A stretch of DNA of 64,000 nucleotides, taken from sequence record OK254197.1; one strand, written 5' to 3'. Position 1 is the first letter of the stretch. Every line of letters starts with the position of its first letter. Made by a program: the position numbers and the translations under genes. The notes under the pieces were generated by a model that ran no database searches, was not told the origin of the DNA, and was given only the letters and a program-made list of their open reading frames with translations. Source of the DNA: Escherichia phage PNJ1902. Below, one piece after another: positions 37,794 to 44,287 of the stretch.

Positions 37794-37881
37794 GGGGAAA
37801 TATTCTGTAAGTGGTAGCAGAGCTGACTGTAAATCAGTTGTCATTGCGACTCGGGTGGTTCGACTCCATCTTTCCCCACCA
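37794..37881 (+). tRNA. tRNA-Tyr (anticodon GUA), class II
   Basis: Acceptor GGGGAAA/TTTCCCC, loop CTGTAAA, ~15-nt variable arm, T-loop TTCGACT, CCA. Confidence 0.6.
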
Positions 37882-37887
37882 ATTTAA

Positions 37888-37964
37888 GTCCTGTTAGACA
37901 AACTGGTAAAGTCACTACCCTTTCAAGGTAGGATTTGCGGGTTCGATCCCCGCACAGGACGCCA
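37888..37964 (+). tRNA. tRNA-Glu (anticodon UUC)
   Basis: Acceptor GTCCTGT/ACAGGAC, anticodon stem CTACC/GGTAG loop CTTTCAA, T-arm GCGGG-TTCGATC-CCCGC, CCA. Confidence 0.65.
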
Positions 37965-37972
37965 ATTCCTGC

Positions 37973-38049
37973 ATTCCTAGAGTGTTACTGGACAGCATGT
38001 CGGTCTCCAAAACCGTACGGTCTAGGTTCGAGTCCTAGTAGGTTTGCCA
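37973..38049 (+). tRNA. tRNA-Trp (anticodon CCA), acceptor stem with two U-U mismatches
   Basis: Anticodon arm CGGTCTCCAAAACCG as in E. coli tRNA-Trp; T-arm CTAGG-TTCGAGT-CCTAG; acceptor ATTCCTA/TAGGTTT. Confidence 0.5.
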
Positions 38050-38055
38050 AAATTT

Positions 38056-38130
38056 GCACCTTTAGCTGAGATGGATTAGCGCTTGCCTGAAGAGCTTGAG
38101 AGGTTCGTTCGATACGAACAGGGTGCACCA
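38056..38130 (+). tRNA. tRNA-Phe (anticodon GAA), tentative
   Basis: Acceptor GCACCTT/AGGGTGC, loop CTGAAGA at canonical position, anticodon stem with two U-U mismatches, T-arm GTTCG-TTCGATA-CGAAC. Confidence 0.45.
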
Positions 38131-38717: not shown

Positions 38718-38800
38718 GGGTCGTTAGCCAAGCGGTTTGGCGGTGGACTGTTAATCCATGTCGAAAGACAACGTAGGTTCGAATCCTACACGGCCCGCCA
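38718..38800 (+). tRNA. tRNA with class II architecture (13-nt variable arm, G73) but apparent GUU anticodon
   Basis: Acceptor GGGTCGT/ACGGCCC, 3-bp D stem, anticodon stem GTGGA/TCCAT loop CTGTTAA, variable hairpin GTC-GAAA-GAC, T-arm GTAGG-TTCGAAT-CCTAC. Confidence 0.4.
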
Positions 38801-40164: not shown

Positions 40165-40242
40165 CTCCGTGTAGCTCAGTTTGGCCAGAGCGTTTCGTTT
40201 GGGGCGATAGGGTCGGGGGTTCAAATCCTCCCACGGAGACCA
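40165..40242 (+). tRNA. tRNA-Pro (anticodon UGG)
   Basis: Acceptor CTCCGTG/CACGGAG, D arm GCTC...GAGC, loop TTTGGGG, T-loop TTCAAAT, CCA. Confidence 0.55.
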
Positions 40243-40248
40243 AACAAT

Positions 40249-40326
40249 TGCGGGTTAGATCTCTGGTAGAGATCGCTAGTCTCATAAGCTAGAAAGAGGT
40301 AGGTTCGATTCCTGCACCCGCTTCCA
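40249..40326 (+). tRNA. tRNA with CAU anticodon and unpaired 1:72 (initiator-like), tentative
   Basis: Acceptor TGCGGGT/ACCCGCT with U1-U72 mismatch, D stem GATC/GATC, anticodon stem CTAGT/GCTAG loop CTCATAA, CCA. Confidence 0.5.
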
Positions 40327-40972: not shown

Positions 40973-41473
40973 ATGAAGGTAGCTAAAAATGGGAGAAAAG
41001 ATAACTTAAATGAGTTAGAAATATTCCTCCACAATAACAAACTAGACGTAACCGCTAGTAATTACATGCAAATAGCTCTATGGTATAATGGGTATATAGT
41101 TAGGAAGGCCAATCCTAGTAAGGATAAGAAGTCAAATACATACCAAAAGAGACTAGAGCATAGCTATCAAAGATCCCTAAGAGTAGTACAGCTTTATTGT
41201 TATATCAATAATATAAATAATAAGCTGGGATATATTTATATAATATCTAATCCAGCTTTTCCAGGCTGGTTTAAAGTAGGAGCAGCCAAAGATGCTGAGA
41301 CTAGATTAAATACCTATCAAACATACTCCCCTTTTCGGGACTATGTATTAGAGTATTATAAACTAGTAGATAATTATGAACTCAAAGAAAAAGAAATCCT
41401 AAGTTCTTTTTCATCTAGAAATAATGAGTGGGTTCATGCTCCACTTGAAGAAATAATTGCTTGCGTGGCGTAA
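40973..41473 (+). CDS. T5orf172-domain (GIY-YIG-like) protein
   Basis: 166 aa; GYIYIISNP...KVGAA...RLNTYQT motif; 3' end overlaps tRNA-Leu start by ~15 nt. Confidence 0.55.
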   Translation: MKVAKNGRKDNLNELEIFLHNNKLDVTASNYMQIALWYNGYIVRKANPSKDKKSNTYQKRLEHSYQRSLRVVQLYCYINNINNKLGYIYIISNPAFPGWFKVGAAKDAETRLNTYQTYSPFRDYVLEYYKLVDNYELKEKEILSSFSSRNNEWVHAPLEEIIACVA

Positions 41474-41541
41474 TTGGTAGACGCGCGATCCTTAGGAGTT
41501 CGTGTTAATTCGTGTGGGTTCGAGTCCCTCCGCAAGCACCA
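41459..41541 (+). tRNA. tRNA-Leu (anticodon UAG), class II
   Basis: Perfect acceptor GCTTGCG/CGCAAGC, Leu-type D arm, loop CTTAGGA, long variable arm, A73, CCA. Confidence 0.55.
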
Positions 41542-42526: not shown

Positions 42527-42602
42527 TGGGATGTAGATCAATTGGCAGATCGTCGGCCTCTGACTCCGAAGGTTCCACGTTCGATCCGTGGCATCCCAGC
42601 CA
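42527..42602 (+). tRNA. tRNA-Gln (anticodon CUG)
   Basis: Perfect acceptor TGGGATG/CATCCCA, D stem GATC/GATC, loop CTCTGAC, T-arm CCACG-TTCGATC-CGTGG, CCA. Confidence 0.6.
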
Positions 42603-42608
42603 AATAAT

Positions 42609-42684
42609 TGGAGAGTAGTGTAACGGTTAGCACAACGGCCTTTGACTCCGTTAATGGTAGGTTCGATTCCTCCTTCTCCAGCCA
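42609..42684 (+). tRNA. tRNA-Gln (anticodon UUG)
   Basis: Acceptor TGGAGAG/TTCTCCA, anticodon stem ACGGC/TCCGT loop CTTTGAC, T-loop TTCGATT, CCA. Confidence 0.55.
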
Positions 42685-43201: not shown

Positions 43202-43288
43202 GCTGGGTTGGCAGAATGGTTGAATGCACCTGATTTGTAATCAGGAGGAGTAATCCCGTTGCAGGTTCGAATCCTGTGCCCAGCACCA
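43202..43288 (+). tRNA. tRNA with class II architecture (15-nt variable arm, A73) but apparent UGU anticodon
   Basis: Acceptor GCTGGGT/GCCCAGC, 3-bp D stem with 11-nt loop, anticodon stem CCTGA/TCAGG loop TTTGTAA, T-arm GCAGG-TTCGAAT-CCTGT, CCA. Confidence 0.4.
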
Positions 43289-44211: not shown

Positions 44212-44287
44212 AGTTAGTTGGCAGAGTGGTTATGCACCTCCTTCATACGGAGCGACTACAGTGGTTCAAATCCACTACTAACTACCA
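44212..44287 (+). tRNA. tRNA with CAU anticodon (Met or Ile2)
   Basis: Perfect acceptor AGTTAGT/ACTAACT, loop TTCATAC, T-arm AGTGG-TTCAAAT-CCACT, CCA. Confidence 0.55.

Follow-up and report, generated by a model that had tools for sequence, protein, structure and literature searches.

Introduction

Phage-encoded tRNAs are known to defeat immune systems that cut tRNA, and attention has so far focused on anticodon loops and on single substitutions. PARIS AriB cleaves within the anticodon stem, between residues 40 and 41, and the tRNA-Lys of phage T5 resists it through substitutions at 39 and 41 (PMC12409363). A bacterial Schlafen cleaves between positions 30 and 31 (PMC13056530), and CdiA-CT EC869 cleaves E. 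coli tRNA-Trp between 71 and 72 (PMC9071432). Here we describe two neighbouring genes, tRNA-Trp and tRNA-Phe, of Escherichia phage PNJ1902, lying in a stretch of 64,000 nucleotides of record OK254197.1 (the window), each of which carries a tandem of U·U mismatches in one of its stems. The tandem mismatches are very probably real and selectively maintained, as judged from comparison of the sequences. Sequences of T5 have been available for a long time, its tRNA-Phe has been the subject of biochemical work, and deviant phage tRNAs are a known kind; nevertheless, the literature covered by us, which did not extend to the early T5 sequencing papers where the T5 mismatches may appear, holds no account of a cross-phage conservation of tandem mismatches specific to position and isoacceptor.

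Two neighbouring phage tRNAs with tandem U·U mismatches

The window derives from a T5-like phage of the family Demerecviridae, and its tRNA-Trp and tRNA-Phe genes close a tightly spaced cluster of four tRNA genes, Tyr-Glu-Trp-Phe, at 37794-38130. The tRNA-Trp(CCA) gene (37973-38049, plus strand) is 77 nt long including its encoded CCA and was found both by ARAGORN and by the Rfam covariance model RF00005, which gave it 36.3 bits (gathering score 29) over its full length, model positions 1-71, with posterior '*'. Its acceptor stem contains U2 (37974)·U71 (38044) and U3 (37975)·U70 (38043), so that the tandem has U2 and U3 at 37974-37975 on its 5' side and U70 and U71 at 38043-38044 on its 3' side. 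The model alignment marks both pairs with 'vv', and the base identities were checked directly in the sequence. Both had been reported in a preliminary description made from the letters of the window, which overlooked a third U·U, the closing pair U27 (38000)·U43 (38016) of the anticodon arm (38000-38016), also marked by the covariance model.

The tRNA-Phe(GAA) gene (38056-38130, plus strand; 75 nt including the encoded CCA, with A73, A20 and G37) was likewise identified by ARAGORN and Rfam, with 42.4 bits against the same gathering score of 29, again full length over model positions 1-71 with posterior '*'. The two U·U pairs that the preliminary description had placed in its anticodon stem are confirmed by the covariance model and by the bases themselves: U28 (38083)·U42 (38097) and U29 (38084)·U41 (38096) form a 2x2 U·U/U·U internal loop, its 5' side at 38083-38084 and its 3' side at 38096-38097, flanked by C27-G43 on one side and by G30-C40 and C31-G39 on the other. 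In the two genes together U·U replaces a standard pair at five stem positions, at which the window tRNAs differ from the E. coli comparison sequences, trpT and pheV. A BLAST search of 5,426 E. coli genomes with the Trp and Phe genes found none, so that there is no host or prophage copy for comparison.

Both molecules fold into cloverleaves with 7/4/5/5 stems, a 7-nt anticodon loop, U33, a purine at 37, a UUCRANN-type T-loop, and CCA after the discriminator. The T-loop and anticodon loop are canonical in tRNA-Trp (UUCGAGU and CUCCAAA) and in tRNA-Phe (UUCGAUA and CUGAAGA), and the core residues U8 and A14 are present in tRNA-Phe. The characterization of the two tRNAs as otherwise well formed is correct for the loops and needs qualification for G8 and U14 of tRNA-Trp and for A20 and G37 of tRNA-Phe. 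The tRNA-Trp has G8, A9 and U14 (within 37973-37986) in place of the near-universal U8 and A14, a deviation that is no bar to membership of the tRNA family, the model score staying above threshold; G8, A9 and U14 are common to the Klebsiella phage version of the gene. Among identity elements, G73, the anticodon CCA and A1-U72 are present in tRNA-Trp (determinants as given in PMC9976931), and the strong Bacillus subtilis tryptophanyl-tRNA synthetase (TrpRS) determinants G2-C71 and G3-C70 are missing; both positions are G-C in E. coli trpT. The E. coli tRNA-Phe elements G34, A35, A36 and U59 are found in the window tRNA-Phe, and U20 is missing, the D loop AGAUGGAU placing A at position 20.

The pairing register

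A mis-registered fold, raised as an alternative in the preliminary description, would replace the mismatches with fully paired stems whose loops are conserved at least as well. For both genes ARAGORN and the covariance model arrive at one and the same register, the model aligning each at full length and above the gathering score with the U·U pairs marked, and tRNA-Trp has no alternative register. The tRNA-Phe does have a slipped 4-bp alternative (G26-C40, C27-G39, U28-A38, U29·G37), which appears in the minimum-energy fold; nearest-neighbour energies for the isolated arm are -2.9 kcal/mol for the slipped form and +1.0 kcal/mol for the canonical form with its 2x2 loop. The slipped register was rejected as the functional fold: it puts C at the U33 site and would present CUG, its fourth pair is lost in relatives, and the model does not select it, so that it is no fully paired alternative of the kind that would refute the observation. 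The lability predicted for the canonical Phe anticodon arm may nevertheless be real. T5 tRNA-Phe is an authentic substrate of phenylalanyl-tRNA synthetase (PheRS), and the E. coli enzyme uses different identity elements in it at low and at high Mg2+, according to a passage of PMC9976931 that cites Kholod et al.; such Mg2+-dependent recognition fits a labile structure. Pairing of the 5' leader with the 3' end (GC...GC in the window) was considered as a processing signal and dropped, relatives not keeping it.

The tRNA-Trp tandem across phages

The 700 bases spanning the Trp and Phe genes match Salmonella phage vB_SpuM_X5 at 99.7% identity and over 100 Salmonella and Escherichia phages at more than 95%, and the tRNA-Trp is 100% identical in many Epseptimavirus and Tequintavirus records. 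The tRNA-Trp of Klebsiella phages AmPh_EK80 and GZ8 is 81% identical to that of the window; in them pairs 6:67 and 7:66 and the T stem throughout have undergone compensatory change while U2·U71 and U3·U70 are kept. That of GSW6 differs by exactly one compensatory change, U31-A39 to C31-G39, inside the anticodon arm. In close relatives compensatory changes lie beside the mismatches and not within them. The tRNA-Trp of Serratia phage Slocum has U2·G71 and G3·U70 instead.

The tandem also occurs in tRNA-Trp genes of a very different kind. An IMG/VR scan seeded only on the anticodon arm returned at least 120 unique tRNA-Trp, and about 12 of those listed had pyrimidine·pyrimidine (Y·Y) pairs at both 2:71 and 3:70 on entirely different acceptor, D and T arms, in the combinations U·U/U·U, U·U/C·C and U·U/C·U. 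In samples unselected for the acceptor stem, a tandem Y·Y at 2:71 and 3:70 was present in 8/111 unique phage tRNA-Trp and in 1/1980 other phage tRNAs (Fisher p = 4e-10). This site of tRNA-Trp is the strongest tandem-mismatch hot spot among all isoacceptors. The Y·Y at 2:71 in the unbiased set was always U·U, never C·U or C·C. Among the listed tRNA-Trp ending in UUUGCCA, the 5' ends AAG, AUU, GAG and AUC were represented by 30, 24, 8 and 7 unique sequences respectively, and the fully Watson-Crick 5' end AAA by about one, against 31 with AUU or AUC.

Plain MAFFT misplaced gaps in the acceptor stem of Trp genes with atypical D arms, and fixed-length stem-loop segments were therefore aligned instead. 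The resulting class comprises 35 distinct members with a median identity of 64%, falling into 16 clusters at 80%. Since this class is defined by the mismatch itself, it is informative for the constancy of U2 and U71, found in 35/35 members, and for the turnover around them: 1:72 and 4:69 to 7:66 are paired in all members, with changes on both sides in 4-19 sequences per pair, and the T stem is 98.9% paired. The closing pair 27:43 is unpaired in 17/35, and the acceptor tandem is often accompanied by Y27·U43.

In single arrays of about 20 tRNA genes most acceptor stems are perfect while that of tRNA-Trp has the tandem. Carriers include T5-like phages of Salmonella, E. coli and Klebsiella, the Streptomyces phage Manuel, in which the gene lies unannotated between tRNA-Met and tRNA-Gln, and a prophage in a Paramicrobacterium chromosome, where a tRNA-Trp of 62.6 bits, canonical apart from its two 'vv' pairs, adjoins portal and capsid genes. 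A GTDB scan with the Trp 3' pattern UUUGCCA gave one genuine tRNA among the 120 matches listed, and that in a prophage, the others being chance matches; the scan is no census, and it suggests that the tandem type is rare in cellular genomes. The preliminary suggestion of a phage-specific feature is supported in this form, as a feature specific to position and isoacceptor that recurs in very different phages and whose single genuine example in the bacterial scan is itself in a prophage.

Several other observations concern these genes and arrays. The alanine identity pair G3·U70 is present in 9/111 phage tRNA-Trp, more often than in any isoacceptor other than tRNA-Ala (61/61), and in 42/97 of the listed tRNA-Trp ending in UUUGCCA (5' ends AAG, GAG and AGG). 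Examples are found in Mycobacterium phage Popcicle (locus L581, 55-128), Gordonia phage BrutonGaster (L580, 61-134) and Slocum (L002, 1870-1944), and such tRNAs might be mischarged by alanyl-tRNA synthetase (AlaRS). An uncultured viral contig with a U2·U71 tRNA-Trp (L310) also has a manA RNA motif (1980-2205; Rfam RF01745, 67.9 bits) at the upstream end of its tRNA array.

The tRNA-Phe internal loop across phages

The annotated T5 tRNA-Phe is 97.7% identical to that of the window and has the identical CUUGC/GCUUG anticodon arm; the tRNA-Phe of GSW6 and phiR2-01 differs from that of the window in the T arm and at position 66 only, with the mismatches unchanged. A scan seeded on the D arm found the CUUGC/GCUUG arm joined to acceptor stems and T stems that are unrelated. 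When U28·U42 was required and 29:41 left free, 27 unique tRNAs with 21 different acceptor stems were found among the matches listed, with U·U at 29:41 in 11 of the 27, A·C in five, C·C in four, U·C and G·A in one each and a standard pair in the remaining five. Because U28·U42 is accompanied by varied 29:41 mismatches, the conserved element is taken to be the 2x2 internal loop with its flanks C27-G43 and G30-C40/C31-G39. The tandem at 28:42 and 29:41 occurs in 4/96 tRNA-Phe and 3/2048 other tRNAs (p = 1e-4), a weaker enrichment than that of tRNA-Trp, and many Phe carriers share one D arm, so that common descent contributes.

Further variation in these and other phage tRNAs was noted in passing. 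The T arm of the GSW6 and phiR2-01 tRNA-Phe (L575 and L576) has positions 54 and 58 of the T-loop exchanged in a coordinated way, and the same T-loop AUCGUUA in place of UUCGAUA (T54:A58 to A54:U58) is found in many phage tRNA-Phe (for example L578, 1501-1575, and L002, 1501-1575), the two forms differing even between close relatives of the window phage; ARAGORN misses some such genes. The tRNA-Phe of three related arrays (L186, L218 and L297) conserves C4·C69 with U5·U68, and runs of U·U at 4:69 to 6:67 are present in about 5/69 phage tRNA-His from IMG/VR.

Background of stem mismatches and the other tRNA genes of the window

The background was taken from 1668 unique phage tRNAs parsed from IMG/VR loci, with Trp and Phe excluded. 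At least one stem mismatch is present in 45% of them, at 0.62 mismatches per tRNA; U·U is the commonest type (32%), and pyrimidine·pyrimidine mismatches make up 51%. A single U·U in a phage tRNA is ordinary. A tandem U·U is found in 0.8%, and the window has two neighbouring genes with one each. The 14 tandem U·U seen compare with about 2.6 expected under independence, by our estimate, and are thus about five times commoner.

ARAGORN finds 21 tRNA genes at 32.5-44.3 kb of the window, with about 16 stem mismatches in total once the start of tRNA-Tyr is corrected (ten U·U, four C·U, one C·C and one A·G); 15 of the approximately 16 are pyrimidine·pyrimidine, a set slightly richer than the background. 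The repeated pattern of the preliminary description takes in three kinds of mismatch: sporadic U·U pairs of the ordinary sort, the initiator 1:72 mismatch that is to be expected, and the two conserved tandems. All of the following genes are on the plus strand. The parsed stems at 40165-40326 belong to a tRNA-Pro with U28·U42 and an initiator-type tRNA-Met with U1·U72, the latter common to T5, as expected of initiator tRNA. The Pro mismatch looks sporadic because it is lacking in T5, and both mismatches of tRNA-Leu(UAG) (41459-41541; U30·U40 and U50·U64), neither of them shared with T5, look sporadic as well. The tRNA-Gln(CUG) and tRNA-Gln(UUG) genes (42527-42684) both have C31·U39, the second also U50·C64, and the elongator tRNA-Met (44212-44287) has C27·C43, as does that of T5. 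Two further tRNAs are unusually long for their isoacceptors: tRNA-Asn (38718-38800; 83 nt, G1-C72) with a 12-nt variable region, and tRNA-Thr (43202-43288; 87 nt), whose variable region has a stem of its own.

The two upstream members of the cluster, tRNA-Tyr (37794-37881) and tRNA-Glu (37888-37964; Rfam 61 bits), both on the plus strand, have fully paired acceptor stems. ARAGORN starts tRNA-Tyr at 37795, one base late, which is the source of two false acceptor mismatches; a start at 37794 gives the perfect stem GGGGAAA/UUUCCCC. The best Rfam match of this long-arm tRNA-Tyr is the tRNA-Sec model, below threshold, and the gene is labelled 'tRNA-Pseudo-GTA' in the phiR2-01 record. The Trp and/or Phe genes are unannotated in nine phage records (H31, H32, H34, H42, H45, H47, H48, H51 and H91), and in that of Phage NBSal005 one tRNA of the Tyr-Glu-Trp-Phe cluster is labelled 'tRNA-OTHER'. 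It is likely that the missing annotation results from low tRNA-finder scores caused by the mismatches. ARAGORN itself missed the T5 tRNA-Trp, a Phe-like gene of Slocum and the Manuel tRNA-Trp (in a 194-nt fragment), so that its counts are lower bounds. With low tRNA-finder scores and missing annotation, phage tRNA complements may be undercounted.

Discussion

These comparisons show that both genes encode genuine phage tRNAs which fold correctly and are under structural selection, and the rest of each tRNA evolves by compensatory change as functional tRNAs do. A U·U mismatch can stay stacked in an A-form helix and yet narrows and weakens it. Such a local irregularity would alter how proteins that read the stem as a regular duplex see the tRNA, and host nucleases or toxins directed at tRNA stems would then most likely act poorly on the phage copy, with translation still working; it could then replace a host tRNA destroyed by a defence system. 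Nuclease escape of this kind is our leading guess for the mechanism, held by analogy and tentatively. An effect on processing or host nuclease sensitivity, as the preliminary description proposed, may exist and has a precedent in T5 (PMC12409363). It is favoured because it has been shown in the T5 system itself, for PARIS AriB and T5 tRNA-Lys, and the T5 tRNAs that rescue from PARIS (Lys, Thr and Asn) all have anticodon-stem mismatches in our parse.

A number of points weigh against escape from nucleases or against the selection on which it depends. We know of no phage-defence nuclease directed against the stems of tRNA-Trp or tRNA-Phe, and the occurrence of the motif in more than one host phylum is easier to square with a universal partner (a synthetase, EF-Tu or the ribosome) than with a host-specific defence. 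CdiA-CT EC869 acts more readily, not less, on tRNAs with weak or mismatched acceptor tops (PMC9071432). The B. subtilis TrpRS depends strongly on G2-C71 and G3-C70 (PMC9976931), and with their loss the Trp variant may be poorly charged. The GenBank record of T5 notes which tRNAs can be converted to amber suppressors, and the amber-anticodon versions of its tRNA-Trp and tRNA-Phe do not suppress. The IMG/VR scans were seeded by patterns of our own choosing and concern the matches listed (at least 120 per scan), ARAGORN under-calls mismatched tRNAs, and lineages with a repaired pair are invisible in the class of 35.

A different benefit would follow if the irregular helix tunes the translation machinery or tRNA identity through a universal partner, an explanation that is the main rival to nuclease escape and somewhat less likely than it. 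The candidates are TrpRS or PheRS kinetics, rejection by a non-cognate synthetase, a gain of AlaRS through an irregular 3:70, affinity for EF-Tu, and flexibility of the anticodon stem in decoding. The mismatch is fixed at one isoacceptor position in phages of Proteobacteria and Actinobacteria, which points to a conserved partner, and 3:70 is G·U in 9/111 phage tRNA-Trp and Y·Y in roughly as many more. The predicted marginal stability of the canonical Phe anticodon arm (+1.0 kcal/mol) and the Mg2+-dependent PheRS identity of T5 tRNA-Phe, as reported in the passage of PMC9976931 mentioned above, would fit the same explanation. As to rejection by a non-cognate enzyme, G2-C71 and G3-C70 with G73 and a weak 1:72 pair also make up the glutaminyl-tRNA synthetase (GlnRS) set. 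GlnRS must open pair 1:72, and T5 tRNA-Gln(UUG) has U1·U72 there. However, the GlnRS determinants would disappear with a Watson-Crick replacement of any kind, so that mismatches are unnecessary for avoiding mischarging, and TrpRS should be less efficient without G2-C71 and G3-C70, at least in B. subtilis (PMC9976931).

It is also formally possible, though unlikely, that the tandems are a tolerated legacy, which is the null hypothesis: U·U, above all as a tandem, would be the least harmful mismatch, supplementary phage tRNAs would be weakly selected, and an ancestral gene would have spread without benefit. The high background of mismatches in phage tRNAs (45% of tRNAs, with U·U at 32% and Y·Y at 51%) is what this predicts, the U·U pairs of the window tRNA-Pro and tRNA-Leu are not in T5, the roughly fivefold excess of tandem U·U over independence is expected if they are well tolerated, and the one D arm common to many Phe carriers suggests common descent. 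Drift would be expected at neutral sites, yet U2 and U71 stay fixed where adjoining pairs have been doubly substituted many times, and the Y·Y at 2:71 is always U·U. The enrichment is confined to one isoacceptor and position (p = 4e-10), and most other tRNAs of the same arrays have perfect acceptor stems. One transversion would repair each pair, yet AAA...UUU is almost never found.

A constraint at the level of DNA, in which the odd bases shield the tRNA genes from the homing endonucleases directed at tRNA genes of T5-like and T4-like phages, or overlap DNA signals, is very improbable. The T5 tRNA region does contain the HNH homing endonuclease genes hegA, hegC and hegD, and SegB of T4 is active within a cluster of tRNA genes (PMC2330249); against this, the same RNA geometry recurs in phages with unrelated flanks and in a prophage structural module, no endonuclease gene adjoins the window cluster, and the altered bases are exactly pairing partners. 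Still less credible is that the genes are an artefact, decaying pseudogenes or uncharged non-translational decoys. Their Rfam scores of 36 and 42 bits are the lowest in the cluster, compared with 61 for tRNA-Glu, the cloverleaf is not the minimum-energy fold, several GenBank records leave the genes unannotated and the T5 notes report no amber suppression. A pseudogene in decay would not be expected to keep its mismatches invariant or to show compensatory changes at 31:39, 6:67, 7:66 and the T stem, as relatives do here; moreover, two tools give the same register, the Trp sequence is 100% conserved in many phages and T5 tRNA-Phe is charged by PheRS (PMC9976931, in the passage citing Kholod et al.). 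The least probable explanation is post-transcriptional repair, in which a Thg1-like 3'-5' polymerase corrects Trp positions 1-3 with the UUU strand as template: the Trp acceptor tandem does lie exactly within positions 1-3. Against this, the window and the arrays examined each have a single isoacceptor so affected, the Phe tandem sits in the anticodon stem, and enterobacteria and T5 are not known to have a Thg1-like protein, for which no search was made here.

It is possible, though we would put it below an even chance, that phage tRNAs carry an unrecognised class of conserved, isoacceptor-specific tandem pyrimidine mismatches that are functional signatures absent from cellular tRNAs; the class possibly also includes the tRNA-His U·U runs at 4:69 to 6:67 and the mismatches at 4:69/5:68 in some tRNA-Phe. 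If this is true, the class would give immunity to stem-reading nucleases or change identity, for example through an irregular 3:70 of tRNA-Trp that recruits AlaRS.

Comparison with known systems

In mitochondrial tRNA 5'-editing, mismatches in the first three acceptor pairs are repaired by a 3'-5' polymerase. The acceptor mismatches of such substrates are confined to pairs 1-3, a likeness shared by tRNA-Trp only; here tRNA-Trp alone is affected, in contrast, and the carriers are bacterial viruses without a known editing enzyme. Another functional, conserved acceptor-stem mismatch, one that is read by proteins, is pair 1:72 of initiator tRNA, exemplified in the window by the initiator U1·U72, although both the position and the isoacceptor are different.

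The escape described for the anticodon loop (van den Berg et al., eLife 2023, PMC10264068) resembles the present case in that phage tRNAs deviate where nucleases bind. It differs in being a base substitution in a loop, as opposed to a conserved non-Watson-Crick pair in a stem, and the text of that paper, in the part searched, makes no mention of stems or mismatches. In the T5 tRNA-Lys, tRNA-Thr and tRNA-Asn facing PARIS, differences of the anticodon stem from the host copy block a stem-cutting nuclease (PMC12409363, PMC11464382); the Trp tandem, unlike these, lies in the acceptor stem, and no nuclease is known for Trp or Phe.

T5 itself (AY543070) shares with the window the order Tyr-Glu-Trp-Phe and a tRNA-Phe with the same anticodon arm. 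In the comparison with T5 proposed in the preliminary description, the tRNA-Trp of T5 at the same site (L001, 7935-8005) proved to be a different molecule of 71 nt with U1·U72. Its shortened, atypical D arm resembles the Streptomyces-phage type (AGCGUAGGYUGUGCC). The tRNA-Trp type of the window, in contrast, is that of Epseptimavirus and Sugarlandvirus, and the different T5 tRNA-Trp at the same locus indicates that two tRNA-Trp families alternate at one site in T5-like phages.

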